This document shows, piece by piece, positions 1,485 through 32,000 of a stretch of 32,000 nucleotides of DNA. The notes below the pieces were generated by a model. It searched no databases. It saw only the letters and a program-made list of their open reading frames with translations, and was not told the DNA's origin. Positions within the stretch are counted from its first letter, which is position 1. Each line of letters opens with the position of its first letter. Origin of the DNA: Alphaproteobacteria bacterium (lineage in GTDB: Bacteria > Pseudomonadota > Alphaproteobacteria > Rs-D84); assembly GCA_017475605.1 (NCBI GenBank), contig JAFVFD010000002.1:30001-62000 (forward strand), written 5' to 3'. Position numbers and translations under genes: made by a program.

Positions 1485-1506
1485 ACTGGTACCTTTTGTC
1501 TGTATT

Positions 1507-1537: not shown

Positions 1538-1587
1538 TTTCAAGGTTTTTTGTTGCCTTTCCCAAATGGTGTGCTAACCTTTTTGGT

Positions 1588-2478: not shown

Positions 2479-2489
2479 GCAGGATTAAA

Positions 2490-2885
2490 ATGAAAACGGA
2501 AACATTGACTAAATTGGCAATTGCATCGGTGCTTTGTGCGCCATCATGTGCGACCGAACGCGGTGTCGTTATTGACCGCCAAGATTTGCCTGACGAACGG
2601 GCTTTATATGTAAATCTTATACGAAAAAACAAAGCAAAACAAAAACCGCTTGCTGTACAACCGGATGGTATGTATGAAGCGGACCGCAAATTATTCTTTA
2701 TGGATTCTACATATCAGGAACCGTTTTTGTATGTGTTACCGGGCGATACCGTATATATAAATAACCCATTGAAAAAAACATATTTGGAAATGGGACGCGG
2801 TAAAAAACACATTATTCGTATCAACGGTGTACGTGAAAAACAAATCGTAAAAACGGTTCGTTTGTGGAAAGATAAGCAAAAATAA
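2490..2885 (+). CDS. Hypothetical exported protein (N-terminal signal-like hydrophobic segment)
   Basis: 131-aa ORF. N-terminus is MKTETLTKLAIASVLCAPSCA. Its stop overlaps the queA ATG by 1 nt, suggesting an era-x-queA-tgt co-transcript. I recognise no family. Confidence 0.55.
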   Translation: MKTETLTKLAIASVLCAPSCATERGVVIDRQDLPDERALYVNLIRKNKAKQKPLAVQPDGMYEADRKLFFMDSTYQEPFLYVLPGDTVYINNPLKKTYLEMGRGKKHIIRINGVREKQIVKTVRLWKDKQK

Positions 2886-3934: not shown

Positions 3935-5047
<1,113 letters not shown>

Positions 5048-5048
5048 T

Positions 5049-5405
5049 ATGCCCGATAAAAAACCAGAAAACATTGATATGAATAAAATGCCCGCGTTGA
5101 CAATGAATATAAATGATAAACTGTTTTTCGCATTGGCGCGTCGTGATACCGACACTTTGTCGTATGTATATTCACTGGTAATAAATCGAGAACAAGGCAG
5201 TTATCCCGCCGAAATGAAAACAGAAATATCCGCGTTCAAGGATACAGCCAGCGCAAATTTATATTATGAAACCGCAACACTTGTTATGGAACAGCAACAA
5301 AGCGGTATATTAAATAAAATACATGAATTATTCCGCGGAATGTTTGAATCACAAATAACTGCATTTAACAAAAGTGCGTCAGGTTTTAAAACACGCACAA
5401 AGTAA
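5049..5405 (+). CDS. Hypothetical protein (orphan, AT-rich patch)
   Basis: 118-aa ORF that starts 1 nt after the tgt stop. No recognisable motif and no TM segment. The coding call rests only on ORF length and position. Confidence 0.45.
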   Translation: MPDKKPENIDMNKMPALTMNINDKLFFALARRDTDTLSYVYSLVINREQGSYPAEMKTEISAFKDTASANLYYETATLVMEQQQSGILNKIHELFRGMFESQITAFNKSASGFKTRTK

Positions 5406-5450
5406 TTATAAAAAACACATCATAAGAATTAAACATAAAAGAGAAGCAAA

Positions 5451-5804
5451 ATGACACAATATAAACAAGTAACCAAATACGTAATTGATCGTAAAATAAA
5501 TATCAATATAGACCCCAAATGGAAAGAAATATATCTTGGGGTTGCGGAACCGATACGGTATAAACAAGAATATCGTGTTTTGACATATTATATTCCGGTA
5601 ACGGATAAATCTGACGACTCGTTCTTTTATATCCCCAAGGTTTCTGGTGCCAGATTTTCAACCAAAAATGCTGCGATGAAATACTATAACGAAAAACAGT
5701 CATTAAAGGCAATGCAGTGGAAAATCAACACTGACGAGAAAAACAACACACCGTTTGATTTTATGGACAAACAAATAGCAAATTTTTATTCCTTTGCGCG
5801 GTGA
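5451..5804 (+). CDS. Hypothetical protein (orphan, AT-rich patch)
   Basis: 117-aa ORF preceded by aaagagaagcaaa (weak RBS). No recognisable motif. Confidence 0.45.
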   Translation: MTQYKQVTKYVIDRKININIDPKWKEIYLGVAEPIRYKQEYRVLTYYIPVTDKSDDSFFYIPKVSGARFSTKNAAMKYYNEKQSLKAMQWKINTDEKNNTPFDFMDKQIANFYSFAR

Positions 5805-5872
5805 TATGAATTATCGCTTGCATGAAAGCAATAAAATAATTATCTTTCATAAATATAAACAAGGGGGACCAG

Positions 5873-6847
5873 ATGGCCAAAAAGAAAGAAGTTGAAGTAA
5901 TTGATATGGGTGGCGCAAAAACCGTTGCTAAAAAGAAATCTTTTATTACACGTGTAAATGTTATATTTGCGATTTTTTCGGTCGTATGGTTGGCATTTGT
6001 TGTGTGGTATCCATTACACATTCGCGATAAATACGCATCTTCAATAAAGCAATCGACAGTAGTTGCGATTTTCTATGATTTACAACGTAATATTGCGGAT
6101 CAATATGAAAAAATGTTGTTGGGAATTAAAAAGTCTATCAATCTGGAAAAGCCAATAGCACAGGTTATAGACAAGGTTAAAATGGCCGAAGGTGCGATTA
6201 ACAAAGTAACCGATACAACTGCGCGCGCGACCGAGGCAACCAATAAAGCCAAGGACACAACGTCCGGGGTTCGTGCTTTAAGTGGTATCGCGGGCAAATT
6301 TGGTGTCAACACATCTGGGGTTGATAAAGCAGTTGGCAAGGTTGATAACACAATTAACAAGGCGGACAAGGCAATAGCAAAGGTTGACGATACCGCCGCA
6401 TTGGTAAACCAGAAATTAACAAGTGTTGAAAATGAATTGACCAAGGTTGCAAAAACCGAAGTGGACAAGGTTATTGATGATGCAATCAAAAATAACATAG
6501 ATCCTGCGGCTGCAATGTTATTAACACAATACGATATCAAACATGTATATCCATGGGACCCATCGTCGTGGCCGACCGCACGCAAGATTTATGCGGAATT
6601 GGTAAAATCTGACCTGGGGTTTGTACAAACTATTATCAAAACAGTGAACAAGTATTTCGGATATGTAATGTGGGGTTATTTGATTTTGATGTGGGGTGTT
6701 GGCCTTTATATCTGGTTGACCGTCCGCAAGTATGTCAAGGGATTGACCGCGCCATTCTTGGTCTGTCCACGATGCGGACACACATATGCCGACAAGCGTA
6801 CAGCGGTAAGTTTGCTGAAAGTTGTACAACCATGGAAATGGTTTTAA
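5873..6847 (+). CDS. Hypothetical bitopic membrane protein with a K/D/T-rich helical repeat domain and a C-terminal CPRCGH motif
   Basis: 324 aa with RBS aagggggac. TM1 is FAIFSVVWLAFVVWYPL and TM2 is YVMWGYLILMWGVGLYIWLTV. The central region has reiterated KV(D/T)xT.NKA(K/D)xxx units (VDKAVGKVDNTINKADKAIAKVDDTAALVNQKL). Confidence 0.6.
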   Translation: MAKKKEVEVIDMGGAKTVAKKKSFITRVNVIFAIFSVVWLAFVVWYPLHIRDKYASSIKQSTVVAIFYDLQRNIADQYEKMLLGIKKSINLEKPIAQVIDKVKMAEGAINKVTDTTARATEATNKAKDTTSGVRALSGIAGKFGVNTSGVDKAVGKVDNTINKADKAIAKVDDTAALVNQKLTSVENELTKVAKTEVDKVIDDAIKNNIDPAAAMLLTQYDIKHVYPWDPSSWPTARKIYAELVKSDLGFVQTIIKTVNKYFGYVMWGYLILMWGVGLYIWLTVRKYVKGLTAPFLVCPRCGHTYADKRTAVSLLKVVQPWKWF

Positions 6848-6858
6848 CGATAAACAAG

Positions 6859-6886
6859 AACCGCCATTGTGGCGGCTCTTTCTTTG
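6859..6886 (+). terminator. Rho-independent terminator after 5873-6847
   Basis: Hairpin CCGCC-ATTGT-GGCGG at 6861-6875, followed by a T-rich stretch (ctctttctttg). Confidence 0.5.
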
Positions 6887-6896
6887 AAAAAACAGG

Positions 6897-6948
6897 AATC
6901 AAAAAACCACCTAAACAGGTGGTTTTTAAAATTTTGGTGCGAGCAAAG
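6897..6948. repeat. Displaced copy of the tRNA-Gly 3' end (last 11 nt plus CCA) with its terminator hairpin
   Basis: 52 nt (aatcaaaaaaccacctaaacaggtggtttttaaaattttggtgcgagcaaag) match 7000-7051 with one mismatch (6912 t versus 7015 c). The offset is 103 nt. Confidence 0.85.
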
Positions 6949-6999
6949 TACTTCGGCAATTTCATTGCCTTGCCTCGCAACTCGCCCCTTTGCCGACAA

Positions 7000-7051
7000 A
7001 ATCAAAAAACCACCCAAACAGGTGGTTTTTAAAATTTTGGTGCGAGCAAAG
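7000..7051. repeat. Master copy of the repeat: tRNA-Gly terminator hairpin (7004-7030) plus the tRNA 3' end
   Basis: See 6897-6948. The hairpin is ccacc-caaaca-ggtgg flanked by A and T runs. It overlaps the 3' 14 nt of the tRNA gene. Confidence 0.85.
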
Positions 7052-7114
7052 GGGCTCGAACCCTCGACCTCAACCTTGGCAAGGTTGCGCTCTAGCCAAC
7101 TGAGCTACGCTCGC
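7038..7114 (-). tRNA. tRNA-Gly (anticodon GCC), CCA encoded
   Basis: Folded by hand from the reverse complement: GCGAGCG-TA-GCTC-AGTTGGCTA-GAGC-G-CAACC-TTGCCAA-GGTTG-AGGTC-GAGGG-TTCGAGC-CCCTT-TGCTCGC-A-CCA. Length is 77 nt. Confidence 0.9.
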
Positions 7115-7152
7115 ACTGCGTGGGGTATTCTGACATAACTTTTTTATGATTG

Positions 7153-7189
7153 CAAGTATTTTTTATGCGATATACGTAAAAAATACTTG
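7153..7189. promoter_or_regulatory. Perfect 13-bp inverted repeat in the tRNA-Gly / secreted-protein intergenic region
   Basis: caagtatttttta (7153-7165) and taaaaaatacttg (7177-7189) are exact reverse complements, separated by an 11-nt spacer (tgcgatatacg). Confidence 0.5.
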
Positions 7190-7254
7190 ATAGAGATTGT
7201 AATTTTTTTGTACGATTTTGTTGAAGTATTTATGGAAAGGGGGATAATCTGGTC

Positions 7255-10113
7255 TTGAAACGCATGGTTTTAGGGCTTTTTGCGTGTTTGTTTGGTGTGT
7301 TCGTCGTGAACGTGGCGATGGCTGCGTGTACAGAAAATGAAATTGATGTAACCGGTACCGGCAGTCAATGTGAAACAGTAAAATTTACCCTGACAACAAC
7401 GGAATTGGCGGCAAACGGATCATTAAATATATGGATGTCTGCCAAGGGAACATTCTATATTGATTGTGGGAAAAATGGTACGTTGTCTGGTGCCGGAACA
7501 TCTGGTAAAACGCTTACAAAAACAACCAATTTGGTTTCAGAAGTGCAATGTAAATGGTCGTCCGCCGGTGTACACACGATTCGATTTGGTGGAACCGCGA
7601 CGGAATATGCCAGTGTTGGTCTTGATGCATCTTCAACCAATGCGGCGATACAATTTGGTACCAGCACAAATCAGTCAAAAATAGCATCTGTGTCAGGTTC
7701 GTTGGGCGCAATGTTCCCGCAATTGGGATCGGCATCGAACCAAGTTCCAAGTTTTGCATCATTATTTGATGGGGCCAGCAATTTAACATCTATACCATCG
7801 ACATTGTTCAGTGGTTTAACCGGCAGTGCCAACGCAAGGTATATGTTTCATGAAACTTTTTCTGGTTGTACCAGTTTAACATCAATACCGGCGGGATTGT
7901 TTGCGGATATTACCACACCTGCCGAGCATATGTTTAATAAAACGTTTAATGGGGATACTAATTTATCTGGCTTTATACCATGGACTACATTTTCTGGATT
8001 GGTTGCAAATAACAGTCCAACCGTTTCAAATATGTGGGTTAATACATTCCAGGGCACCAATTTGGCTACGGCTTGTCCAACGGGGTCAACCCAATATACA
8101 ACCCAATACGAATCCAGTTGGAACAGCAAAATTTCATGTATTTGTGCCGGCGCATACTTTTTTGATGATGCGCTGAACACATGCACCCCATGTCCAAATG
8201 GCTATGATTATGATACAACCAACGGCAAAACGGATGTAAGCCAGTGCCAAATACAGTGCGCAGCAGGAACATATGTCGAAACCCCTGGTGTATATGGTTT
8301 TACAGTTCTGGAATATTTGGAAAGCCCCGGTGATGCGTACATTGATACGGGGTTCGTGCACAATTCAGACAATATTCGGGGCGAAATTCGTGTTGGGGTA
8401 TCTGAAAATATCGCGTCAAGCAAGAATTTTAATATAATTGGAAACCAAACAGCCAATGAGGGATATTCTGTGGGGTGGGCAGACAATCAGTTTAAAGTAT
8501 GGGTTGTTACCACAGGTCAACGCTTAAGAGGTCCCGATCATCCATTGGTGGCAAATGGCGTGTATGATATTGCGTATGAATTTAAAAATGGTCGGCAATA
8601 CCTGACAGATGGCAGTGATACAAGAGACATGGCACACGATGGTGGAATTGTGACAGACAAGCCTATACACTTGTTCGATAACGGTGTCCAAGAAATGTCT
8701 TATAATTTCAAGGGGCGTGTGTATTGGATACGGTTATATGAAAACAATGTGTTGGTGCATAATTTCCTGCCGGTGCGTCAAGATGGTACAGATCTGATAG
8801 GTATATTTGATACAGTAACAGGAAGCTTCTTTACCAACAGTAATGCCAATAGTCAAAGTGGATTTACATATGGTGGCGATTTAAGCAACACATGTGTTGA
8901 TTCTGGGCGTGGGTATTATGTTGGGCAATCTATAACCAATTTTGGTGATGTCGGCGAACGGATCCCGTGTCCGATTGGTAAGTATTCCAATAGTCTGCGA
9001 GGCACCAGTATCGCATCGTGCCAGAACTGTCAGGGCGCAACATACAACGATGTTACGGGTGCCGCCGAATGTGCCGCATGTCCGGCCGGATATACCGATA
9101 ATATAGACCCAGGTAAAATATCAAAAACACAATGCGAAACCACATGTCCAGGCGGAACGTATATGAGGTCTGATATGATTAATGGACATACAAAGTTAGA
9201 ATATATTGTAGCGGAAGGCAAACAATGGATAAATACTAATATTAATGCATCATCATTGGTAAATCCAATTATGAAATTGACAACGCAATATACCGCTGTT
9301 GAAAAAGGAAAACAAACCGGTGCGAAGAAAAACAATCTTGATTTCAAGGTGGGTATTTCTAATGGCAATGTGTTCTTGTGCCAGGCCGGTGGGGCAAATA
9401 CAGAAACAAAATTTGGTGCCGCTGACACCGCAAAACATACGTTTATATTGGATGCGGGTGCGGGAAAATGTTCCCTGGACGACGAAATCAAAGACTTGGC
9501 TGTTGGCAATTTAACCGATGGACCCATTTCTATCGGGACGGTGAATAATCAATCTGGCAATGCTGGAAAACAAAAAATCTTTGCTTTTACTTTGATAAGC
9601 AACGGCGTAAAGTTACTGGACTTGATTCCAGTGCTTGATGCAAATGGCGTTGCAGGAATGTATGATGAGGCCCACGATCGATTTTACGCCAGTGCCGGAT
9701 CCCAGCCGTTTGTTCAAGGGCCGCGATCAAATTCTAGTGGTTGTATTGATGTTGAACCGGGATATTGGGCGCCAGAAACTGTGTTAGGATATGGGGAAAC
9801 AAGCGATCGTAATGAATGTCCGCTGGGAACAACAACGGTTGGATATGGCCATGGCGCAGACGAGGCATCTGACTGTGGGCGTGTGTTATATATTGCCAAT
9901 GGAAAGTTTTATGCGAAAACAATAAAGCCAACAACACCGGCACTAAACCTTATGACCAATGGGGGCGGTATATTTTACATCTGGGCCAGCCCAACAGACC
10001 ATACATTATCCAACTTGCACCTGGGATCAATGGAAAATCAATATACGGTATATGATGACAGTTTGTTCTATGGTGAACGCGATTTTACGACGGACAATCG
10101 TATAAACAATTAA
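7255..10113 (+). CDS. Large secreted or surface mosaic protein: signal peptide, DUF285-like ~26-residue repeats, ephrin-receptor-like Cys-rich modules, and two copies of a ~180-190-aa LEY...IPV module
   Basis: 952-aa ORF with a TTG start at 7255, about 11 nt after the RBS aaaggggg. Signal peptide is MKRMVLGLFACLFGVFVVNVAMA/AC. Other motifs include YMFHETFSGCTSLTSIPAGLF, HMFNKTFNGDTNL, CTPCPNGYDY, CQNCQGATYNDVTGAAECAACPAGYT and CETTCPGGTY. Confidence 0.8.
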   Translation: MKRMVLGLFACLFGVFVVNVAMAACTENEIDVTGTGSQCETVKFTLTTTELAANGSLNIWMSAKGTFYIDCGKNGTLSGAGTSGKTLTKTTNLVSEVQCKWSSAGVHTIRFGGTATEYASVGLDASSTNAAIQFGTSTNQSKIASVSGSLGAMFPQLGSASNQVPSFASLFDGASNLTSIPSTLFSGLTGSANARYMFHETFSGCTSLTSIPAGLFADITTPAEHMFNKTFNGDTNLSGFIPWTTFSGLVANNSPTVSNMWVNTFQGTNLATACPTGSTQYTTQYESSWNSKISCICAGAYFFDDALNTCTPCPNGYDYDTTNGKTDVSQCQIQCAAGTYVETPGVYGFTVLEYLESPGDAYIDTGFVHNSDNIRGEIRVGVSENIASSKNFNIIGNQTANEGYSVGWADNQFKVWVVTTGQRLRGPDHPLVANGVYDIAYEFKNGRQYLTDGSDTRDMAHDGGIVTDKPIHLFDNGVQEMSYNFKGRVYWIRLYENNVLVHNFLPVRQDGTDLIGIFDTVTGSFFTNSNANSQSGFTYGGDLSNTCVDSGRGYYVGQSITNFGDVGERIPCPIGKYSNSLRGTSIASCQNCQGATYNDVTGAAECAACPAGYTDNIDPGKISKTQCETTCPGGTYMRSDMINGHTKLEYIVAEGKQWINTNINASSLVNPIMKLTTQYTAVEKGKQTGAKKNNLDFKVGISNGNVFLCQAGGANTETKFGAADTAKHTFILDAGAGKCSLDDEIKDLAVGNLTDGPISIGTVNNQSGNAGKQKIFAFTLISNGVKLLDLIPVLDANGVAGMYDEAHDRFYASAGSQPFVQGPRSNSSGCIDVEPGYWAPETVLGYGETSDRNECPLGTTTVGYGHGADEASDCGRVLYIANGKFYAKTIKPTTPALNLMTNGGGIFYIWASPTDHTLSNLHLGSMENQYTVYDDSLFYGERDFTTDNRINN

Positions 10114-10315: not shown

Positions 10316-11782
10316 ATGTCAGAAAACGCAACAATATCGACGAATGAATTACAGGCCCGTTTACAAAAGGCTGAAAATATCCGCGCGCGTGATGGTGTTG
10401 TATGGAAAGATACATTTGATCGTTCACATACAATTGCGGACGCGCGTAATTTGCCGGATGGAACCGCCGTTAAATTATGTGGACGTGTTACTGCGTTGCG
10501 TTGGTTGGGCAAATTGATGTTTGGCCGTATTTACGATATAAATGGCGAAATTCAGTTTTCTATGTCGCGTGAAGAAATTGGCGAAGAAGATTACAAGTTT
10601 ATGAAGGCCAATGTTGATATGGGCGATTTTATTGGTGTTACCGGTGAATTATACCACACAACTGCGGGCGAATTGACTGTCAAGGTTTCGCACTATGATA
10701 TTCTGTCCAAGGCATTGCGTCCGTTGCCGGAAAAGTTCCATGGCCTTACCGATACCGAGGCACGCTATCGTCAACGTTATTTGGACGTAATTTCGAATCC
10801 TGAATCCCGTAACGCGTTGTTGGGCCGTTTCAAAATGACACAAAACTGGCGGCAATTTATGATTGATAACGGCTTTTTGGAAATTGAAACACCAATTTTA
10901 CAAAATGTTGCGTCTGGGGCGGCGGCAAAGCCTTTTACCACACACCATAACGCGTTGGACGCAGATTTTCAGTTGCGTATTTCGCCGGAATTGTTCTTGA
11001 AAATGGCAATTGGCGCGGGTTTTGACCGCGTGTTCGAAGTTGCAAAAGATTTCCGCAACGAAGGTATGGATGCGATGCACCTGCAAGAATTCACAATGGT
11101 TGAATGGTATGCGGCATATTGGGATTACAAGAAGAATATTGATTTTACATGGCGATTGATTCAACACCTGATTAAATCTGCACGTGGTACATTACAGATT
11201 TCATACCAGGGAACAGAATTAGATTTTTCAAAGTATGAAATGATGGATTACACCGCGAAAATGAATGAATTGTTCGGATGTAATATTTTGGACTTTGATG
11301 ATTTAGATGCGTTAAAGAAGCAACTGGTTGATTCCGGTATGTTCCCGGCCGAAGATTTGGAAAATCTTAATTCTATACCTGTATTGGTGGACTGGGTTTA
11401 CAAACGCAAAATCCGCGACAGTATTGTTAAGCCAACATTCCTGTATAACTATCCAACATATATGGTACCATTGGCGCGACACAGTGATGCCGATGACAGA
11501 TGCCTTGATATGTTCCAATTGTTGGTATGCGGTGCCGAATTGTGCAAGGGGTATTCAGAATTGGTTAACCCAATTCAGCAATTGGCGGCATTTGAACAAC
11601 AGGCCAAAAACATTGCCAACGGCGATGAAGAAGCATTTAACCCAGATAACGACTTTGTGCGCGCGATGGAACATGGTTTCCCACCGATTTCCGGGGTTGG
11701 CCTTGGGGTTGACAGATTGGCCAGCATTATATTTGACCAGCCGACATTACGTGATGTCATATTGTTCCCAATGATGAAATAG
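10316..11782 (+). CDS. lysS: Lysine--tRNA ligase, class II
   Basis: 488 aa with RBS gaagga. It has an OB-fold N-domain and class II motifs (FRNEG, GVGLGVDRL). Confidence 0.9.
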   Translation: MSENATISTNELQARLQKAENIRARDGVVWKDTFDRSHTIADARNLPDGTAVKLCGRVTALRWLGKLMFGRIYDINGEIQFSMSREEIGEEDYKFMKANVDMGDFIGVTGELYHTTAGELTVKVSHYDILSKALRPLPEKFHGLTDTEARYRQRYLDVISNPESRNALLGRFKMTQNWRQFMIDNGFLEIETPILQNVASGAAAKPFTTHHNALDADFQLRISPELFLKMAIGAGFDRVFEVAKDFRNEGMDAMHLQEFTMVEWYAAYWDYKKNIDFTWRLIQHLIKSARGTLQISYQGTELDFSKYEMMDYTAKMNELFGCNILDFDDLDALKKQLVDSGMFPAEDLENLNSIPVLVDWVYKRKIRDSIVKPTFLYNYPTYMVPLARHSDADDRCLDMFQLLVCGAELCKGYSELVNPIQQLAAFEQQAKNIANGDEEAFNPDNDFVRAMEHGFPPISGVGLGVDRLASIIFDQPTLRDVILFPMMK

Positions 11783-11792
11783 GGCAATCAAG

Positions 11793-13190
11793 ATGATTTC
11801 TAAATCTGATACTTTTGCGGTTGATTTAACCGCAGATCACGACAGGAAAAACCTGGCCGATATTGAACACGCACTGGCCGAACACCGTATTAACGAAGAA
11901 GCGGCCGAATACCTGCGGTCCCTGTATTCCGACGGGATGGATTGGTTCCGTGAAGTGTTTCATGTCCTGGGTAAATGCCTTGGCGCGCCCAAGGCACCCG
12001 TTGTGCGTTATGATTATGAAAACGATTGTGGTGTTGATGAACAGATTAAAATATCTGATATTAACCCATTGTCGCCATATCTTGTCCAGCATCGTTTGGA
12101 CATGGACCCAATGCGTAATCAGTTCTTTACGGTTACCGCCGGACACCAGGTTGATTTGTCGGTGTCGTCTATTGTTACGGTTATTGTTGCTGCACAAAAA
12201 CGCACAGAACGCGCACTGGAAAAAATTACGGGAAAATATTATCGGGACTATGTTAACGATGTTGCAACAACCGCTGAACGCGTTATAACTGCGCACGAAC
12301 GCGCGGCATCTGGGCGCGCAATCGCCGAAAAAATACGTGAAGAGTTTTCTGATAAGTTTATAACATCTGCACCAGAAACTGTATTAAAGATTATCGGTCG
12401 CGGCCACGAACAAATTGCCGTAGATTTAGTGCGCGAATTGGATAAAATTGAAAAGCCGCATTTAAGATTGCAAGATGTTTGGCGCGTGAAGTGTTTGTTT
12501 GATTTGGTGCCCCAGGCGCGTACATTCATAGAACGCATCCGCGAAGCGATGCCGGAACGCATTATTTCCATGCGGGACAAGTTTTATGATATGGACAACC
12601 CACGTAATTATCGTGATGCCAAAATTATTTTGAATATTGGGCATGACGGCGGGCCGGTTATACCAATGGAAATTATATGCCAGGTGCGTACGTTCTTTGA
12701 ATTTGAACGCATGACGCACATTCAATATGAACGCGCGCGCAAACGCAAAAACGCGGCCAGTGATAACATAGAACGCAAATTGGCAGATTATATGGAAGAT
12801 GGCATCAAAGAATACAACCTTATGATTTGTCGCTGTGTCGAGGCTTTGTTTGACCGCGTTGGGTGGAATATTTTGTATGAACGCGGAATCGGCATGTCGC
12901 TTTTCGAAGGGTTCCCAAAGAATTGCACCTTGTATTATCCGCAAAAGATGTTGGATATCATTACCGATAAATTGGATAACGCGATTGAAAACGAAGTGTT
13001 TCGCCTTACCACTTCGCCCGCGAAATTAACCCAGGCCCAAACAAGCGAAATCTTTCACTTTATGGCGCGGTTTATTTTGGTTGCGGCGATGCCATATCGT
13101 AAATCGGCATGGTCTGCGCCGACGAATACACCGGCGGGCAAATTATTTAATTTCGTTATGAAGGAAGTTCAACGTTATTACAAACAATAA
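11793..13190 (+). CDS. Hypothetical protein with a possible divergent RelA/SpoT-like (RSH) nucleotidyltransferase core
   Basis: 465-aa ORF. Residues 228-318 (nt 12474-12746) read DVWRVKCLFDLV ... NPRNYRDAKIILNI ... PMEIICQVRTFFEFERMTHIQYE. This parallels the RSH synthetase motifs DxxGxR(I/V), GYRSxH and EIQIRT...H..YK. The match was made by eye only. Confidence 0.35.
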   Translation: MISKSDTFAVDLTADHDRKNLADIEHALAEHRINEEAAEYLRSLYSDGMDWFREVFHVLGKCLGAPKAPVVRYDYENDCGVDEQIKISDINPLSPYLVQHRLDMDPMRNQFFTVTAGHQVDLSVSSIVTVIVAAQKRTERALEKITGKYYRDYVNDVATTAERVITAHERAASGRAIAEKIREEFSDKFITSAPETVLKIIGRGHEQIAVDLVRELDKIEKPHLRLQDVWRVKCLFDLVPQARTFIERIREAMPERIISMRDKFYDMDNPRNYRDAKIILNIGHDGGPVIPMEIICQVRTFFEFERMTHIQYERARKRKNAASDNIERKLADYMEDGIKEYNLMICRCVEALFDRVGWNILYERGIGMSLFEGFPKNCTLYYPQKMLDIITDKLDNAIENEVFRLTTSPAKLTQAQTSEIFHFMARFILVAAMPYRKSAWSAPTNTPAGKLFNFVMKEVQRYYKQ

Positions 13191-21412: not shown

Positions 21413-21441
21413 TTGATTTTTTTATGGTTTTGTGATATAAT
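21413..21441 (+). promoter_or_regulatory. Near-consensus sigma70 promoter with extended -10, upstream of the toxin gene
   Basis: TTGATT (21413-21418), a 17-nt spacer, TG at 21433-21434, and TATAAT (21436-21441). Confidence 0.5.
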
Positions 21442-21456
21442 ATGTGCAACTAAACG

Positions 21457-21479
21457 GACGGCATTTGCCGTCTTTTTTT
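21457..21479 (+). terminator. Terminator-like hairpin inside the toxin-gene leader
   Basis: gacggc-attt-gccgtc (21457-21472) followed by 7 T. A second, weaker hairpin ccgc-tacgt-gcgg (21487-21499) is followed by 6 T. Confidence 0.5.
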
Positions 21480-21526
21480 ATTTCCACCGCTACGTGCGGG
21501 TTTTTTATTTAACAAAAGGAGTTATA

Positions 21527-22678
21527 ATGCAAACACCAAAATTTTTACGCAATTTATTACAATCTAATAACTATTGGAATAAAAATAGTACTGAATTCGC
21601 AAAAGCAAATGAATATCTGGAAAAGTTATATCCAGTGCAACTGTCCGCTGATTTATCAGGAAGATTTGTTGAACCGCCATACGATATGACCCTGGAACAA
21701 TTTGAAAGCGCACAACGGCAATTCGACAAAGATTTGGAAGATGCGATTCATGAAGCAGAAGATTCAGTAGATGATGCAAATGGAACAGCAGAGCCAATTG
21801 ACTATGACCAATATGTAGATATTGAAGAAACGATAGATGTTCGTGTTTTGATGCCAGGTGGAAATATAGAATATATGCAACTTGTCGTATATATGTTGAA
21901 TTTGCCTGATGATGACACTGATGTGGAACTGGAACCAGATAAAACACAAAGGATTTGGATATGGCACAGCGAAGAAGACGAAAATGTTTGCGATGATTGT
22001 GTATCACACGATGACGAAGTATTCGAAGACAAAGACGATATTCCAGAAATTCCCGTGCATCCTAACTGTCGTTGTTGGGTTGAAGAAGTAAAGTTAGATG
22101 ACAACGGTAAACCTATTTCAAGTAAAGCATACAAAGGGCAAAAGCCAGAAATACCGAAAAATGACAAAGAACCTCAGTCAGAAAAAACGCCAACTTTTGA
22201 TAAACCTGTTGATATAAAAGAAGGTCAATATGCCACATTTGACGGGAAAAATCTGACTATATTTCAAGACGGCAAAGTTGTTGCTTCGTGGAATGCGGTA
22301 TCAGGTCGTCCAGAGTATCAAAGTCCAGAATATCAAAATCTAAAATCCACAGGTCCAATTCCAGAAGGTGCATATGTAGCAAGACAAGAAAAATTACAAC
22401 ATATGTCACCAGCAGATTGGGCAATTGGATGGTCCAGAGTTCTGGGAAATAAATTTGGTGGGAAATGGCCGGGTTCATCTGTTTCTTGGGGAAATTCTCG
22501 CGTATGGCTGGAACCTTCAAAAGAAACAAACACTTTTGGACGTGACAAATTCAGTATTCACGGAGGCTTGTTTCCTGGTTCTGCAGGTTGTATAGATTTG
22601 ACGGACCAAATAAACTCTTTTACATCTTGGTTGGAAAGTACTGGAAAAGATTTACTGATATATGTAAAATATAAATAA
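21527..22678 (+). CDS. Polymorphic-toxin-like protein: MuF/SPP1-gp7 C-terminal signature fused to a Tlde1/DUF2778-like L,D-transpeptidase-fold peptidoglycan toxin domain
   Basis: Start set at ATG 21527 (RBS aaaggag), not 21413. The MuF motif is IWIWHSEEDENVCDDCVSHDDEVF...PVHPNCRCW (nt 21953-22078). The C-terminal domain (nt 22223-22675) reads WNAVSGRPEYQSPEYQNLKSTGPIPEGAY ... LEPSKETNTFGRDKFSIHGGLFPGSAGCIDL. Confidence 0.7.
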   Translation: MQTPKFLRNLLQSNNYWNKNSTEFAKANEYLEKLYPVQLSADLSGRFVEPPYDMTLEQFESAQRQFDKDLEDAIHEAEDSVDDANGTAEPIDYDQYVDIEETIDVRVLMPGGNIEYMQLVVYMLNLPDDDTDVELEPDKTQRIWIWHSEEDENVCDDCVSHDDEVFEDKDDIPEIPVHPNCRCWVEEVKLDDNGKPISSKAYKGQKPEIPKNDKEPQSEKTPTFDKPVDIKEGQYATFDGKNLTIFQDGKVVASWNAVSGRPEYQSPEYQNLKSTGPIPEGAYVARQEKLQHMSPADWAIGWSRVLGNKFGGKWPGSSVSWGNSRVWLEPSKETNTFGRDKFSIHGGLFPGSAGCIDLTDQINSFTSWLESTGKDLLIYVKYK

Positions 22679-22693
22679 GTCAAAGGACATTTT

Positions 22694-23041
22694 ATGAAAT
22701 ATTGGAAACGCGCAGCAATAATTTTTGTTGGAATTGATTTTTTTCTACTTTTTGCGTTGATTGATGAATATTATGAATTTTTTATCAAGGATTGTCGTGA
22801 TGCGTTTCCATTCCATTATTGTCCATGGGGTGGCGAAAGTATGGGTTGGGGATGGAGAAATGCCGATGTATATTTGAATGGCATAGCATCATCTGGTGCT
22901 GTTTTATTATTGTTTATTCCATTGGCAATATATCATTTGTACAATCAAAATTATAAATATGCATTTTGGACTGCTTTAGCCCCAATCATAATATCTTGGA
23001 GTAGTGAATTTTTAGAACGTATTTTATATTATTGTGCTTAA
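22694..23041 (+). CDS. Small 3-TM membrane protein, candidate cognate immunity protein
   Basis: 115 aa. Starts 15 nt after the toxin stop, with RBS aaagga. TM segments are AAIIFVGIDFFLLFALI, SGAVLLLFIPLAIYHL and FWTALAPIIISW. Confidence 0.6.
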   Translation: MKYWKRAAIIFVGIDFFLLFALIDEYYEFFIKDCRDAFPFHYCPWGGESMGWGWRNADVYLNGIASSGAVLLLFIPLAIYHLYNQNYKYAFWTALAPIIISWSSEFLERILYYCA

Positions 23042-23050
23042 CTTGTTGAC

Positions 23051-23093
23051 ATTTGAAAATAATGGACATGATTTAATTGTTAATGTAAAATAC
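23051..23093 (+). repeat. Cassette-flanking repeat, copy A
   Basis: atttgaaaataatggacatgatttaattgttaatgtaaa matches 23398-23436 at 33 of 39 positions. All 6 differences are transitions. Confidence 0.75.
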
Positions 23094-23095
23094 AA

Positions 23096-23398
23096 ATGAT
23101 GAGTTTTATAGGCAGTTTTTTATCTATGACCCTTGCATTATTCTTTCTGAATGATTTGTCGGGGCTTTTAAGTAACGGTAAATGGGACGGCTTACTGCAT
23201 TTTATATGCGAACATGATTGCCTTATGCTTGTTGATAAAATAGCCCTAGTATTATTTAGTACGATGTTTGTATTTTTTTCTATACAGGCAATAAAACTAT
23301 ACAAATGGAAATTTTTATTTGTCCCTTTATTATCTTGCCTTGCATGGTTATTGTTGATGATGTTACATTTATTGACAGTATATTTGTTTTTTGTATGA
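23096..23398 (+). CDS. Small multi-TM membrane protein (holin-like or orphan immunity candidate)
   Basis: 100 aa and very hydrophobic (FIGSFLSMTLALFFL, IALVLFSTMFVFFSI, FLFVPLLSCLAWLLLMMLHLLTVYLFFV). There is no clear RBS. Confidence 0.45.
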   Translation: MMSFIGSFLSMTLALFFLNDLSGLLSNGKWDGLLHFICEHDCLMLVDKIALVLFSTMFVFFSIQAIKLYKWKFLFVPLLSCLAWLLLMMLHLLTVYLFFV

Positions 23399-23443
23399 TT
23401 TGAAAACAATGAACATGATCTAATTATCAATATAAAGAAATAC
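23398..23443 (+). repeat. Cassette-flanking repeat, copy B
   Basis: atttgaaaacaatgaacatgatctaattatcaatataaagaaatac. See copy A. Confidence 0.75.
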
Positions 23444-23448
23444 TTTGT

Positions 23449-23475
23449 CCTGCATCATTTGGTGCAGGTTTTTTT
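23449..23475 (+). terminator. Rho-independent terminator between the membrane-protein cassettes and the lysozyme gene
   Basis: cctgca-tcatttgg-tgcagg (23449-23468) followed by 7 T (23469-23475). Confidence 0.7.
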
Positions 23476-23487
23476 ATAAAAAAAGAG

Positions 23488-24006
23488 ATGAAAGATATGA
23501 AAATGAGTGACAATGGCATAAATATGTTAAAAAAATTTGAAGGTTCTGTAACAAAAGGCGATAAACACATTATATATGATGATAAAACCGGGAAACCCGT
23601 GGATGTGAACAAACCTTTACCAAGTGGTGCAACTATCGGTTATGGTCATTTAATCAAACCGAACGAAGATTTTAGAAACGGAATTTCAGAATCTAAAGCC
23701 ACCGAATTATTACGCGCCGACATTGCAACTGCAGAACGTGCCGTACGAGATAACATAACTGTACCATTATCACAGAATCAATTTGATGCTCTGACTTCTT
23801 TGGCTTATAATATCGGCTCAAAAAATTTCGCAAATTCAACCGTTGTTAAATATGTAAACAATCCGAATTTTCATAGTTCTGTGTATCCAAATCTGGAATC
23901 TGCATGGAAGACATGGAATCGTTCCCAGGGCAACGTATTAAAGGGTCTTGTAAACCGCAGACAAAACGAATGGGTTATGTATAATCGTGGTATATATTTA
24001 ATTTAG
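23488..24006 (+). CDS. GH24 (phage T4/lambda-type) lysozyme/muramidase, no signal peptide
   Basis: 172 aa. Motifs LKKFEG ... YDD ... TIGYGHLI ... LSQNQFDALTSLAYNIG. Alternative ATG starts exist at 23497 and 23503. Confidence 0.85.
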   Translation: MKDMKMSDNGINMLKKFEGSVTKGDKHIIYDDKTGKPVDVNKPLPSGATIGYGHLIKPNEDFRNGISESKATELLRADIATAERAVRDNITVPLSQNQFDALTSLAYNIGSKNFANSTVVKYVNNPNFHSSVYPNLESAWKTWNRSQGNVLKGLVNRRQNEWVMYNRGIYLI

Positions 24007-28160: not shown

Positions 28161-28187
28161 ATAAAAAGCCCCATCTTGCGATGGGGC
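28161..28187 (-). terminator. Rho-independent terminator of the giant Cys-rich gene
   Basis: Perfect 8-bp stem gccccatc / gatggggc (28168-28187) with loop ttgc. The T-run on the minus strand corresponds to the A-run at 28163-28167. Confidence 0.75.
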
Positions 28188-28199
28188 AGGCGGTTAGTG

Positions 28200-31100
28200 C
28201 TACCACGATATATATCCTGGATTACACGTCCGTTCGCACTTTTTGGTGGCATTGTTCCACCGCAGCGAACCTGTTTCGTCTGAATATGGGCGATCACAAA
28301 TTGGGACACATTCGTTGTTGTCCAAATTGTACTTTTCGCCTTGATACAGACATGATGCTATTTCGCAACCGGTGCTGTAACTGGCCGCGGCAACTTCGCC
28401 CAGAACACTGAACTTGTTGCGACATGCGCTGCACTGTTCGGATGCGTTATTCTTTTCGTATGGGTCGTTCGTATAGCCCGGTACGCACGATGTCGCAATA
28501 CATTCGTTCCATGAACCCGTTGCGGTGTTCCATGTCTTTGTACCAACACCGTTCGGGACGTTACACACCTGTTCATTTTCAACACACGCGTTTGATGCCA
28601 GGTGGAACCCATCTTCACACGATTTTATCGTACAGATGCCGAATGCGCCATGTGCTGCATCCCACTTCTGTGTGGCAACTGTTGCGTTTGGTGCCACGTC
28701 TGTACAATCTTTGACATCTTCCTCACAAACACTGTTGTATGGATGGTAACCAATCACGCAGCTTTCAATTATACAGTTTCCATCAGGTTTATAGGACAAT
28801 GCGTTTTCACGATTGCATGGCTTACATGACCCATTGACCATTTCGTAGTTACTGATACACGCTGTTTCTATACAATGCCCGTCAACAACTTCTGCCGGGT
28901 TACCAGTCGCAGATGTACCAGTGTACTGACAATTGTTTGGCCAATAGGCGGTGGTTTCAACTGGGCTAAGGGTACAATTATCCTCAACATATCCAGTACA
29001 CTTGCGGTAACAATCGCTTGCCTTGGTGGCCCCAGGGGCTGAATACATCCAACTGCCATCACCCAGGTCCGCGCAAGATTTCGCGCCGTTGCCACCTTCG
29101 CCGCCCGGTGTTCCATCACAGAAACTGCCCGCTGGACAAGTTACACATTGGCCATTGGACAGTGTATAACCTGATGCACAAGATGTAATCGCACATGTGT
29201 CTGTGGCAGTATAATAATCATGGCCCGACATCGCATTTGCGTTTTCGCCCATTGTACAGTCGCGATAGCAATATGCCTTATCTATTGTTCCTGCTTCTGA
29301 CTTTGGATACAACCCACCAGTCAGATATTCGCAGGTTTCTACTTCCTGTCCAGGTTCACATACACTGTTTTCTGGACATACGAAGCAGGCACGTTCGCTT
29401 TCGCTGGTTGCTGTACGTGTTGTTGTCCCCGCCGGACACGCATACCGCGCCAAATCGCGATCTGGGCTGTAATACGCATAGTCCGCCACAGAACATTCTA
29501 TATCGGTCGCATTTGCCAACCAATAACCCGCATCGCAGTACAGCATAGTTGGGGTTCCGCAACCGGCCAGGTACGCATCATCCGCAACACTCCATTTACA
29601 TGTGCGTTCGCCACCACCATGTTCCGCAACATACGGTTGTCCATTCTTCCAGCATTCAGATATCGTACTGGTGTTGTTGTATGATGTCTTACCTTCGTTC
29701 GGACACGCATGACGTTCCAGTTCGTCTTCAATGCTGTAATAGTTGAAGTCTACGACAGTACATGCGATATCTGTTTGTGCCGCCAAATAATACCCACCAC
29801 GACACTTTGTAATAACCTTGTCAAAGCAATCGCGTCCATAAACCGCACTATTTCCTGTGCCATTTGAATACCAGCAACTTTGTGTCCCAGTACCCGACCC
29901 ATCGGTCGCCGCATAGGCCAAATTCGCCTTGAAGCATTCCTGGACCGTTTCCGCGGTTGTGTTATCAGACTTCGTTGTACCGCCATTCGGGCACGCATCA
30001 CGTGTTAATATATTGTTCGCACTGTAATACCCGACACCGGCCGCTGAACAATCGGTGCCTGTTGTGGTTGCCAACCAATGACCCGCATCACAGGATGTTA
30101 TTACAAAGTCTTTACATCTGTCGGAATAGGCCAGGGCTGTTTCGTTGTAATAACATGTTTGTGTACCGCGTCCATGTGTTGCAACATATGTTGGCAACAA
30201 TTCTTTATAACATGCCGCACTGCTTTCCGAATTGGCAGGCGATTTACCATCGTCCGGACAGGGTTCAATACCTGCCTGGCCAGAATTTGTAACGACGGTT
30301 ACACCAGGGCAATAGTTGTTTGCCGTACATGGTAAACAGTCTGTTGTCGGATTTTCGCCGGCACCGCGATAATATTTACCCACTGGACATGTAATAGGTG
30401 CATCGGTCCATTGTGCAGAAACCGTAGCATTGGATGTTGTAAATGTCAGTGCGGCCGTTGTTGTTACAAATTTGCCGTCCGCATCAACAACAGATACATT
30501 ATTCCCTGTGTATCCAGCGAATGTCAACACACCCTTGACCGGTTTTGTGGTCAGTGTGGTAATTGCCGTTGTGGCGGCTGCATTTGAATACCAGCCGGTC
30601 GCATACTTCAAATACACCTTGGCCGGTGAACCAGCGGTTGTCGCACCATTGTGATTCAATGTGATTTCATACACATTCGGTGTCCACTGGGCAAACAATT
30701 CAATATCAGATGCATCAGACGATATATTTGTCGTAACCGTAGTACCCGCGTTATAGCATGTGCCACCACCATTCGCCGCGGTGCACCATTTGTTCGCGGT
30801 GCTGTACCCGGTGCGTGTATCCACAATCGCCGGTAATGCGCATGCGCCACTGTCGAATGTGCACTTTACACTTGGTGCGGTTGAACCCGTACCACCATTT
30901 TTGTTAAGGGTAATGGTGTATTCGTGTGCATCGCATGTTGGTGCGGCGGTGTTGTTGTTTTTGACATCATAACCGGTCTTGCACACTACATTGTATGAAC
31001 AAGCATTATATGTTGTCGCGCTGTTACCATACACGATATTTTCCGCGGCGGATACAGTCTTGGAATTTGCGAAATCCGCAGGTGTTTTATCGCATTCGGT

Positions 31101-32000
31101 ATAGCATGCGGTGTAACTTGCCGCGAATTCTGTTGAACCCGCCCAGCCCGCCGGACATTCCGTTTGGGTTGTTGCACCATCACCACTGTAATAACCGCTT
31201 GTTGTGCCGGAACACGCGAACGAACCGGCGACCCTGTAAAAGTATCCCGCGTTACAGGTCAAAGCATCGGCATCCATACAGTTATTATAATCACCACTAA
31301 CTTCTGTGCCGTTGTAATAGCATGTGGCGAAACCTGTACCATTTGCCCAATTGTGATTTGGATAGCCGGTTGTTGCGGTATATGGATTATATGTTACATA
31401 ACAAGTCTCAATACCACGATATTTTTGACCTTCAACCAGGGCGGCCTTGCCCGGGGTGCCATCTTTGTCGGTCGGACAGTCGTGGAATCCATCTGTATCG
31501 CACCACATATCTTCTGGGCAAACATTGGAACTATAGATACATTTGTTATAAGCATTTGTCGTTGTGTTATAGGAAACATGTTGGCTTACCACATTAACGG
31601 TAGTTCCGTTCAGATTCTTGGTTGCTTTACATGTCAAATAACAATCTGTAATCGCTTTACCATTTGTCGCACTGCCAGTATTTGGTGTGTTGCTGACCAC
31701 ATCGCCAGATGTATCTGTACCCGCGGGGCACACATTTAATTTAGTAGATGTGGTATCTGTTATATTTGTTTCGTTCCAATTAGTCGGGGCAGGACTCCAA
31801 TTGCCATCGCCAACCGCAACACAGTCCAGATTTTCATTTGTACTTGTTGCGCCGTCTAATTCATCATAGTATCCAGCATCACACTTGCGCATTGTATAAC
31901 TGTTGCCGCAATTGATTGAATAGGTGTTGTTAACAGTGCTCCAATGGCAACGTTTTGTGCGACCACCATGAGTTGTCTTTTCCCAAATGCCTTCGCGGAC
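28200..32000 (-). CDS. Giant cysteine-rich repeat protein, 5'-truncated by the window edge; contains Listeria-Bacteroides (Flg_new-like) repeats and tandem six-Cys units
   Basis: I checked codon by codon that the frame stays open from 31892 to 32000 (...VREGIWEKTTHGGRTKRCHWSTVNNTYSINCGNSYT-MRKC...), so the ATG at 31892 is probably internal. By hand count there are about 85 Cys in the 1230 aa listed. Confidence 0.8.
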   Translation of the reverse strand, partial: VREGIWEKTTHGGRTKRCHWSTVNNTYSINCGNSYTMRKCDAGYYDELDGATSTNENLDCVAVGDGNWSPAPTNWNETNITDTTSTKLNVCPAGTDTSGDVVSNTPNTGSATNGKAITDCYLTCKATKNLNGTTVNVVSQHVSYNTTTNAYNKCIYSSNVCPEDMWCDTDGFHDCPTDKDGTPGKAALVEGQKYRGIETCYVTYNPYTATTGYPNHNWANGTGFATCYYNGTEVSGDYNNCMDADALTCNAGYFYRVAGSFACSGTTSGYYSGDGATTQTECPAGWAGSTEFAASYTACYTECDKTPADFANSKTVSAAENIVYGNSATTYNACSYNVVCKTGYDVKNNNTAAPTCDAHEYTITLNKNGGTGSTAPSVKCTFDSGACALPAIVDTRTGYSTANKWCTAANGGGTCYNAGTTVTTNISSDASDIELFAQWTPNVYEITLNHNGATTAGSPAKVYLKYATGWYSNAAATTAITTLTTKPVKGVLTFAGYTGNNVSVVDADGKFVTTTAALTFTTSNATVSAQWTDAPITCPVGKYYRGAGENPTTDCLPCTANNYCPGVTVVTNSGQAGIEPCPDDGKSPANSESSAACYKELLPTYVATHGRGTQTCYYNETALAYSDRCKDFVITSCDAGHWLATTTGTDCSAAGVGYYSANNILTRDACPNGGTTKSDNTTAETVQECFKANLAYAATDGSGTGTQSCWYSNGTGNSAVYGRDCFDKVITKCRGGYYLAAQTDIACTVVDFNYYSIEDELERHACPNEGKTSYNNTSTISECWKNGQPYVAEHGGGERTCKWSVADDAYLAGCGTPTMLYCDAGYWLANATDIECSVADYAYYSPDRDLARYACPAGTTTRTATSESERACFVCPENSVCEPGQEVETCEYLTGGLYPKSEAGTIDKAYCYRDCTMGENANAMSGHDYYTATDTCAITSCASGYTLSNGQCVTCPAGSFCDGTPGGEGGNGAKSCADLGDGSWMYSAPGATKASDCYRKCTGYVEDNCTLSPVETTAYWPNNCQYTGTSATGNPAEVVDGHCIETACISNYEMVNGSCKPCNRENALSYKPDGNCIIESCVIGYHPYNSVCEEDVKDCTDVAPNATVATQKWDAAHGAFGICTIKSCEDGFHLASNACVENEQVCNVPNGVGTKTWNTATGSWNECIATSCVPGYTNDPYEKNNASEQCSACRNKFSVLGEVAAASYSTGCEIASCLYQGEKYNLDNNECVPICDRPYSDETGSLRWNNATKKCERTCNPGYISW
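29373..30209 (-). repeat. Three tandem ~92-aa six-cysteine repeat units within the giant protein (aa 562-840 of the listed ORF)
   Basis: The units begin TYVATHGRGTQTCYYNE, AYAATDGSGTGTQSCWYSN and PYVAEHGGGERTCKWSV. Each continues C..(7-8)..C.AG(H/Y)W/Y ... C ... YYS ... ACP.G ... EC(F/W)K. A fourth, separated unit is at aa 184-267. Confidence 0.75.
30405..30920 (-). other. Two Listeria-Bacteroides repeat (InlB B-repeat / Flg_new-like) domains, Cys-free core
   Basis: YTITLNKNGGTGS ... TGYSTANKW ... DIELFAQWT and YEITLNHNGATTAG ... LTFAGYTG ... ATVSAQWT fit the pattern Y.v.f..nGG ... GY.F.GW ... l.A.W. Confidence 0.6.

Follow-up and report, generated by a model that had tools for sequence, protein, structure and literature searches.

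A giant cysteine-rich modular protein of the gut bacterium Candidatus Enterousia, with a predicted signal peptide and two undescribed domain types

The stretch of DNA analyzed here (32,000 nucleotides, referred to below as the window) comes from Candidatus Enterousia, a gut bacterium of the GTDB order Rs-D84 (Alphaproteobacteria) with a genome of ca. 0.9 Mb, and it breaks off inside a giant gene. This gene is real, intact and well conserved, and its predicted product is a giant, Cys-rich, modular exported protein of 2851 amino acids (P0001). We believe that it is probably (at a probability of about 0.6) a disulfide-stabilized, rod-like fibrillar surface adhesin or coat protein that contacts the surface of a partner or host.

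The complete gene and its modules

Within the window the open reading frame (ORF list and translation) runs on the minus strand from a stop codon at 28200-28202 and stays open as far as the edge at 32000. The original prediction, made from the window alone, listed 1230 amino acids and rightly proposed that the protein was longer. The whole gene was retrieved through the exact protein identity of the neighboring HI0933-like gene, which led to two different ENA assemblies, one with the locus on a 217-kb contig (L001) and the other on a 696-kb contig (L002). In both of them the gene is uninterrupted over its 2851 codons (positions 1371-9926), and a single nucleotide separates L002 from the window across 15 kb. 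The part in the window corresponds to residues 1586-2851, i.e., the C-terminal 44% of the protein. The sequence GAGAGGA, a ribosome-binding site, is found 5 nt upstream of the ATG. The N-terminus of P0001 (MGRKRCFLGFFVGLFLFAFSANSFA, followed by EGYSC) combines a basic n-region with a hydrophobic core of 14 residues and the cleavage motif S-F-A. The signal peptide that had been suggested as something to look for in the full gene is thus present and, judged from its sequence, of the classical Sec type, indicating that P0001 is exported.

The 1230-residue ORF contains 85 Cys (6.9%), in agreement with an earlier hand count of about 85 (~7%). The 1266 codons of the window part contain 87, and Cys makes up 6.7% of the full protein. 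The dominant residues are T, A, G, N, S, C and Y, with 14.6% of T and only 2.9% of L. P0001 is a string of small all-beta modules that fold independently: six Flg_new domains, at least seven units with six Cys, many CxxCPxG(Y/F) hairpin modules and a C-terminal domain of 292 amino acids that we have called CTD-A. Nearly all the Cys are invariant by position over hundreds of repeat copies. The features of the gene in the window are as follows, all on the minus strand, with the basis for each in brackets.

28168..28187, minus: intrinsic terminator-like hairpin, GCCCCATCGCAAGATGGGGC and then the T-run TTTTTATT (12 nt past the stop of the giant gene)
28200..32000, minus: part of the giant gene in the window (last 3801 nt, 1266 codons plus stop, of the 2851-codon gene)
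28203..29078, minus: C-terminal domain CTD-A, 292 amino acids, 27 Cys (conservation, AlphaFold2, module map)
28422..28596, minus: variable patch 2 (29 of 36 differences from L001)
29079..29414, minus: Cys-rich linker with the CxxCPxxxxC modules CFVCPENSVCEPG and CVTCPAGSFCDG and one CYxxC...CxxxSCxxGY module (translation)
29415..30260, minus: three tandem six-Cys units of ~95 amino acids each (BLASTP and hidden Markov model, HMM; CP-to-CP register)
30261..30398, minus: CPxGxYY...CxxC...YCPG module of the ephrin-receptor-like type, between the Flg_new pair and the unit array (translation, map)
30399..30674, minus: divergent Flg_new-type (InlB B-repeat) domain, Cys-free (hhalign, internal BLASTP)
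30675..30920, minus: Flg_new (Listeria-Bacteroides repeat) domain with 4 Cys (Pfam PF09479, 28.1 bits when scanned alone)
30822..30924, minus: variable patch 1 (7 differences from L001)
30921..31145, minus: Cys-rich module CYxxC ... CxYxxxCxxGY, ahead of the Flg_new pair (translation)
31146..31415, minus: fourth, separate six-Cys unit (HMM, residues 1781-1870, E 1.2e-9)
31791..32000, minus: another six-Cys unit, truncated by the edge of the window to its C-terminal two thirds (HMM, residues 1574-1655, E 7e-11)

The most characteristic element of the central part is the six-Cys unit, with the consensus CPxxGxT-x9-CYK-x4-Y-x5-GxGTQxCxY-x6-Y-x3-C-x6-CxxGYY-x9-DCxxVGxGYYS-x8-(CP). The three tandem units that had been placed at 29373-30209 in another register are real (29415-30260 from CP to CP), and so is the separate fourth one, to which we can add the fifth at the edge of the window. 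The tandem units match each other by BLASTP (E 1e-17 to 2e-20). The HMM derived from all three matches each at E 1e-43 to 1e-51. This HMM detected seven units in the full protein, five of them in the window. From 70 proteins of the family we gathered 158 full-length units, in which variation is absent or almost absent at all six Cys (over 47 aligned units), at one Gly and at several Tyr. An AlphaFold2 model of the first tandem unit, obtained from the 47-unit alignment, has a predicted local distance difference test score (pLDDT) of 95.3 and shows short hairpins that come after a three-stranded antiparallel sheet. This model had no match in the PDB by Foldseek at E <= 0.001. The weak matches (E 0.24 or worse) were all to eukaryotic extracellular Cys-rich modules, namely OX40 and other tumor necrosis factor receptors (TNFRs), the Cys-rich domain of CaSR, Elapor1, EphA4 and Mst1, and covered only the C-terminal ~50 residues. 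At the sequence level the only match of the six-Cys profile in the PDB was a marginal one (E 0.04) to Mst1, an Ephrin_rec_like protein of the Chlamydomonas mastigoneme. Apart from this one, neither the six-Cys unit nor CTD-A matched anything in Pfam, NCBIfam or PDB sequences, so the well-described bacterial family that might have explained the repeats away did not appear.

Between species, tandem units at corresponding positions (positional orthologs) share 60-75% identity, versus 37-43% between each unit and its neighbors in the same protein, and no tandem repeats were found in the array at the DNA level. Concerted evolution of the units is rejected on both counts, and we conclude that the array is ancient and has not been homogenized. 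A recently described Cys-rich repeat, CysRRep (preprint 10.64898/2026.06.07.730663), is defined by another motif (Cx6-9Cx5-7Cx8-11Cx7-8CC) and has no bearing on this protein.

The six-Cys units and the Flg_new domains are connected by CxxCPxG(Y/F) and CYxxC modules. Both CxxCPxGxFC sequences of the original prediction are present in the translation of the linker, which in Pfam gives only sub-threshold matches to DUF7631 (20.2 bits) and TNFR_ELAPOR1_6th (11.2 bits). The module at 30261..30398 resembles other junctions in P0001 (residues 720-795 versus 2108-2184), and the pattern at 30921..31145 is also found ahead of other Flg_new domains of the protein. By its Pfam scores P0001 is a member of Flg_new (PF09479, gathering threshold 27 bits): the full protein reaches 67.4 bits over four stretches, and the window fragment scanned as one piece only 20.7. 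Two Cys-free Listeria-Bacteroides domains had been described. There are indeed two (30399-30920), although the first in the protein contains 4 Cys. For the other (30399..30674) Pfam finds no Flg_new when it is scanned alone, but it is homologous to its neighbor (hhalign probability 99.5%, E 5e-23) and matches another copy in P0001 by internal BLASTP (E 1.6e-8).

The C-terminal series of Cys-rich modules that had been noticed, ending in CNPGYISW, corresponds to CTD-A. It consists of six consecutive 4-Cys modules (C-x12-23-C-x3-4-C-x10-17-C), the last of which stops at ...CERTCNPGYISW-COOH and lacks the fourth Cys. This is the most conserved stretch in the family (42-87% identity over 52 proteins), with 26 invariant Cys, read across 27 aligned C-terminal domains, and an invariant terminal W. 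A HMMER search with CTD-A against 1.84 billion representative proteins retrieved 474 clusters (50% identity), 204 of them at E <= 1e-30, and among the 150 of these clusters that were listed the match reaches the last residue of the protein in about nine of ten. The AlphaFold2 model (pLDDT 91.5) is a chain of all-beta hairpin modules, and its predicted template modeling score of 0.57 fits such an elongated chain. Foldseek gave no match to PDB or viral structures at E <= 0.001. The best was Pfs25, with its four EGF domains (E 0.03, TM-score 0.13, non-significant); viral fiber proteins match at a similar non-significant level and the Entamoeba lectin was another weak match. Two other proteins, P0145 (1452 amino acids) and P0195 (2013 amino acids), have internal matches to CTD-A in 11 and 18 separate stretches, indicating that the 4-Cys module can also be amplified as a stand-alone repeat.

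Family, locus and strain variation

The search with the full protein gave 295 homologues, nearly all of 1600-4900 amino acids and named only "InlB B-repeat-containing protein" (e.g., MDW2995647.1) or "hypothetical protein", from metagenome-assembled genomes (MAGs) of Alphaproteobacteria. The signal peptide is common to the members, as is a mature N-terminus (A/E)GYxC-x5-6-C-x2-GYY, and they end in one of two domains: the Cys-rich CTD-A (class A) or a Cys-poor CTD-B that finishes in ...TTYSVxDDSM (class B). We also scanned one genome per GTDB species with CTD-A and found 147 loci, of which the best 80, from 72 assemblies, were examined. The titles of these assemblies are Candidatus Enterousia, Alphaproteobacteria or "Rickettsiales" MAGs, apart from four oddly labeled bins that are probably mis-binned. 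The hosts or samples named indicate gut material: yak rumen, sheep, goat, roe deer, water buffalo gut, chicken (intestinigallinarum) and Hadza. An HI0933-like gene is located just downstream in 45 of the 80 loci, indicating an old, long-standing syntenic locus, and many related loci keep the downstream set of HI0933-like flavoprotein, hydrolase and YbaK.

Genomes of the order Rs-D84 have 0.75-1.0 Mb, without a respiratory chain and without biosynthesis of amino acids, nucleotides or lipids, and these organisms have been proposed to be obligate symbionts or parasites that depend on a partner (PMC12306168). The terms "surface protein", "cysteine", "giant" and "adhes" are absent from that work, and in the literature on Enterousia/Rs-D84, Ephrin_rec_like and Flg_new we found no description of these proteins.

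Directly upstream of the giant gene, on the same strand, there is a paralog of 4430 amino acids (P0002). The two genes together take up 21.8 kb, about 2–3% of the ~0.9-Mb genome. The window and L002 are identical to L001 over 15–21 kb except for 36–37 substitutions, all of them in two patches of the giant gene (7202-7304 and 9530-9704 of L001 for patches 1 and 2, respectively). Between the window strain and L001 there are 0 differences in the remaining ~18.6 kb. In L001 neither patch differs from the adjacent paralog (100% identity), versus 96% (patch 1) and 87% (patch 2) for the window alleles, and the L001 allele is present again in a third sample (L004). This suggests, from the alignments, that the patches were produced by gene conversion from the tandem paralog. 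A 180-nt segment matching patch 1 is found twice in P0002 (L085:10001-23293; gene positions 8232-8411 and 10536-10715), which indicates a recent internal duplication of ~2.3 kb in this gene.

Another relative is encoded elsewhere in the window:

7255..10113, plus: 952-amino-acid protein with a signal peptide, mosaic relative (LRR/PARCEL-like N-terminal repeats, few CxxCPxG modules, CTD-B)

This protein had been described as paralog-like and placed in a family of surface proteins. The family exists, large, Cys-rich, modular and with Flg_new domains, but the 952-residue protein (2.7% Cys) is a mosaic relative and not an ordinary paralog. It shares with P0001 only short CxxCPxG stretches (E 7e-7 over 79 amino acids), and its LRR-like N-terminal region is common to other family members. 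Its CTD-B (~110 amino acids, Cys-poor, ...GYGHGADEASDCGR...YTVYDDS), which has no match in Pfam or NCBIfam, is the same alternative C-terminus found in many giant members. A protein from different surroundings, P0074 (L086:8001-19379, 3792 amino acids), has seven units of the six-Cys type, Flg_new and weak matches to Ephrin_rec_like, NCD3G and TNFR_ELAPOR1. Its N-terminus is type IV pilin-like (...GFTLIEIIGVIIIIGIIA) and its neighbors look Gram positive (RNase J, LytR-CpsA-Psr with PASTA, dockerin), indicating that this set of Cys-rich modules is not limited to Enterousia.

The other genes of the window belong to housekeeping or envelope functions (among them BamD, Era, QueA, Tgt, LysS, RpoZ, S4, SmpB, PBP5 and DinB), which indicates a cell with two membranes. 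Those that flank the tandem pair in the window strain are housekeeping or without Pfam annotation, with no dedicated secretion partner among them. Further away, at 21413-24006 on the plus strand, we found a protein of 421 amino acids with Tlde1/YkuD (L,D-transpeptidase effector-like) and Mu-F-like matches, an ORF of 115 amino acids without matches and a phage-type lysozyme, around which the GC content drops to 0.35 (22001-24000). This may be a toxin/immunity island or the remnant of a prophage. The gene calls there differ between L001 (421 amino acids) and L002 (383 amino acids and an extra ORF of 100). Four ORFs of 118, 117, 324 and 465 amino acids at 5049-6847 and 11793-13190, on the plus strand among housekeeping genes, had no Pfam match at E <= 0.001.

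A probable fibrillar surface protein and its alternatives

Several features argue for a fibrillar adhesin or coat. In fibrillar adhesins, for which a Thr-rich, Leu-poor bias has also been reported, Flg_new is regarded as a domain of the stalk (bioRxiv 10.1101/2021.12.07.471604). The PF09479 score above the cut-off and the T and L contents of the protein count for this reason in favor of an adhesin, and its size and stalk are those of such a molecule, with 2851 amino acids, six Flg_new-type domains and at least seven six-Cys units. The high-confidence all-beta models of the six-Cys unit and CTD-A favor a rod, and the only structural likeness that they have, a weak one, is to extracellular disulfide-rich modules (TNFR, Elapor1, EphA4, Mst1, Pfs25). 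After export by the Sec pathway, the invariant Cys would form disulfides within each module (the pairing is predicted), and the chain of bonded beta modules may behave as a long, stiff, protease-resistant rod. Placed on the cell surface, the rod would act as fibrillar adhesin or coat and mediate the contact with a partner or host, its variable middle presumably providing reach or length and binding specificity. CTD-A, in which the terminal Trp is invariant and the last module unfinished, could serve in anchoring, export or assembly, and the tandem paralog of 4430 amino acids would be a donor for gene conversion, diversifying the exposed protein between strains.

Other kinds of large surface protein fit less well. 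RTX or type I giant adhesins have no Sec signal peptide and carry C-terminal RTX nonapeptide repeats and a type I secretion signal. P0001 has a Sec-type signal peptide and neither RTX nor any other Pfam match in its C-terminus, and this candidate was rejected. For an autotransporter (type V), Pfam detected no barrel translocator, and the model of CTD-A is a chain of hairpin modules and not a barrel, the terminal aromatic residue being its only feature reminiscent of one. Pfam scans of the fragment and of the full protein revealed no cell-wall-degrading or other enzymatic domain. Beyond Flg_new, Pfam and NCBIfam yielded only sub-threshold matches of Cys-rich type, also when single pieces were scanned.

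Some points weigh against the adhesin or coat. Neither an adhesive (ligand-binding) domain nor a cell-surface anchor was found by Pfam or NCBIfam. CTD-A, which has no known relatives, could be either of the two. Surface display is predicted, with no outer-membrane translocation route identified. The disulfide pairing is predicted too, from the positions of the Cys. DsbB normally depends on a respiratory chain. The Rs-D84 lineage is devoid of respiratory chains (PMC12306168), and no DsbA was found in the ORFs of the 80 fetched loci (~1 Mb of flanks and not whole genomes, with E. coli DsbA as the query). As for the exchange between paralogs, both assemblies sharing the L001 allele come from one study, and the patches could be an artifact of metagenome assembly at paralogous repeats, although this is less likely.

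A more ambitious version can be proposed only tentatively, as something possible rather than probable. The giant proteins would be the attachment apparatus of Enterousia, CTD-A a new anchoring, export or assembly signal of bacteria with two membranes, and the paralogs a gene-conversion system for surface variation. Another subunit or an outer-membrane partner might then complete the last CTD-A module in trans, and the tandem paralogs would be the bacterial counterpart of the Cys-rich variant surface coats of protists.

The alternative that survives best is a variable, protease-resistant surface coat comparable to the Giardia variant surface proteins or the surface antigens of ciliates and devoted mainly to protection and to evasion of immunity or phages rather than to adhesion, with paralogs that swap segments. 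The gut habitat, ~7% of Cys at invariant positions and weak fold matches to extracellular Cys-rich modules of protists and animals (Pfs25, Entamoeba lectin, TNFR) agree with it, as does the fact that the mosaic patches derived from the paralog are the sole differences between the strains. However, the locus has only two class-A paralogs compared to the ~200 genes of the Giardia repertoire, no Pfam match to variant-specific surface proteins (VSPs) or C-terminal transmembrane anchor is present, and the conservation by position of the three tandem units across species speaks against rapid diversification in that part. We regard a mainly protective role as unlikely, but coat and adhesion are not exclusive of each other.

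Considerably less probable is a head-to-tail polymer, i.e., a bacterial "mastigoneme-like" filament in which the mature N-terminus of each subunit, (A/E)GYxC-x6-C-x2-GYY, would complete the last module (C-x3-C-x2-GY-x2-W-COOH) of the preceding one through an intermolecular disulfide. Joining ...CERTCNPGYISW to EGYSCEKTYISC... does restore the internal spacing C-x3-4-C-x2-GY-x6-7-C-x6-C, and conservation in the family is highest at the two termini. The parity of the Cys also fits, loosely: CTD-A has an odd number (27), the totals of mature class-A proteins are even in 25 of 35, and those of class-B proteins with the GYxC N-terminus are odd in six of six, which hints, in a small sample, that each end has one Cys that is unpaired or bonded between molecules. 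Such counts are small-sample numerology, and the two termini are not coupled, with other N-termini in 17 of the 52 class-A proteins and the GYxC one in six of the 13 of class B. We consider this polymer very improbable.

The same can be said of modules derived from eukaryotes or mimicking them, in imitation of ephrin receptors, TNFR or EGF-type proteins and possibly N-glycosylated, as the original prediction had suggested. The architecture is indeed unusual among bacteria, as had been noted, and there is a weak likeness to ephrin receptors and TNFRs: Mst1 as the single PDB sequence match, a Foldseek probability of ~0.9 over ~50 residues to the repeats of Elapor1, sub-threshold Ephrin_rec_like scores and precomputed PF07699 matches in some homologues. 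No Pfam match at E <= 1 was obtained to the Giardia VSPs (PF03302) or to EGF-type domains, which were the other parts of the proposed likeness. All these matches of P0001 are sub-threshold (Foldseek E >= 0.24; for Ephrin_rec_like/GCC2_GCC3, PF07699, none in the window fragment and 17.8 bits in the full protein, outside the window, versus a gathering threshold of 23.1). There was no eukaryotic homologue among the 295 and 474 matches, each named one being a bacterial MAG, and the 80 loci examined are likewise from bacterial gut MAGs. The locus is syntenic across species and its units are orthologous by position between them, so this architecture is old within the lineage. Bacterial N-linked glycoproteins (PglB- or HMW1C-type) show enrichment in sequons, or extended D/E-x-N-x-S/T sequons, together with an oligosaccharyltransferase. 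The 22 N-x-S/T sequons (x not P) that had been estimated in the 1230-residue ORF were all counted, versus 18.6 ± 3.7 expected from 2000 composition-preserving shuffles (z = 0.9), and 58 versus 46 ± 5.9 in the full protein (z = 2.0). The window ORF is thus at the compositional expectation and not enriched in sequons, an outcome that had been named beforehand, together with the absence of a glycosylation machinery, as counting against the proposal.

Finally, a pseudogene or assembly artifact, for which one could invoke the ease with which giant repetitive genes misassemble and the related contig L004 that ends within the gene, is in effect refuted by the intact full-length gene, with signal peptide, ribosome-binding site and terminator, of equal length in two assemblies from different projects, and by hundreds of full-length homologues with conserved start and end.

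Significance and comparison with known systems

Enterousia (Rs-D84) is widespread in the guts of humans, livestock, birds and insects and has sub-megabase genomes. The two giant genes, kept at a conserved locus, are the most obvious candidates for its contact with a substrate or partner. The six-Cys unit and CTD-A, two types that fold confidently and have no counterpart in Pfam, NCBIfam or PDB, could each be made the basis of a new family. A stalk dense in disulfides is not usual among bacterial adhesins, above all in an anaerobe without respiratory chains, and raises the question of how its thiols are oxidized. The patchwise copying from the paralog would represent a clean, small case of gene-conversion-like variation seen directly in metagenomes.

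The giant surface proteins of episymbionts and predators with reduced genomes (CPR/Patescibacteria, Omnitrophota) are similar in their huge genes, which take an outsized share of a small genome, and in a proposed lifestyle on other cells. Listeria-Bacteroides repeats have been found in giant proteins of gut Clostridia, for which binding to surface glycoproteins of host or prey was suggested; beta-helix filaments and dockerin repeats are described in the same preprint and cysteine is never mentioned (bioRxiv 10.1101/2023.11.21.568195). This domain content is different from the Cys-rich modules found here. The VSPs of Giardia are extracellular proteins with dense CxxC-type modules, a C-terminal transmembrane helix and a CRGKA tail. 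Like these and other protist antigens, P0001 belongs to a gut dweller, has dense CxxC-type modules and shows signs of strain variation via a paralog, and CTD-A has weak Foldseek matches to Pfs25 and to the heavy chain of the Entamoeba Gal/GalNAc lectin. In contrast to the VSPs, it ends in GYISW without a hydrophobic stretch, is ten times larger and has two class-A paralogs at the locus.

With the Ephrin_rec_like and TNFR repeats (Elapor1, EphA4, Mst1; PDB 8tx1, 8wa2) there is an alignment of the CxxCPxG(Y/F)...C modules and of the C-terminal half of the six-Cys unit, with superposition over ~50 residues, and Mst1 is in addition a giant, Cys-rich, rod-forming extracellular protein. However, P0001 scores below the threshold, these repeats contain no counterpart of the three-stranded N-terminal half of the six-Cys unit or of the 4-Cys modules of CTD-A, and the family is specific to a bacterial lineage, with no sign of shared descent. 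To the fibrillar adhesins with Flg_new our protein is comparable in being very long, exported, Thr-rich, built of many small beta domains and gut-associated, and its homologues carry the corresponding name at NCBI. It differs in that its bulk consists of disulfide-type Cys-rich modules (6.7% Cys) and not of Flg_new, cysteine never being mentioned in the study of those adhesins (bioRxiv 10.1101/2021.12.07.471604), in having no known adhesive tip or anchor (LPXTG, type V secretion barrel, RTX/type I secretion) and in the undescribed C-terminal domain of 292 amino acids. The kind of molecule, fibrillar adhesin or surface coat, is already known, and what is new are the two undescribed domain types, one of them the conserved C-terminal domain.

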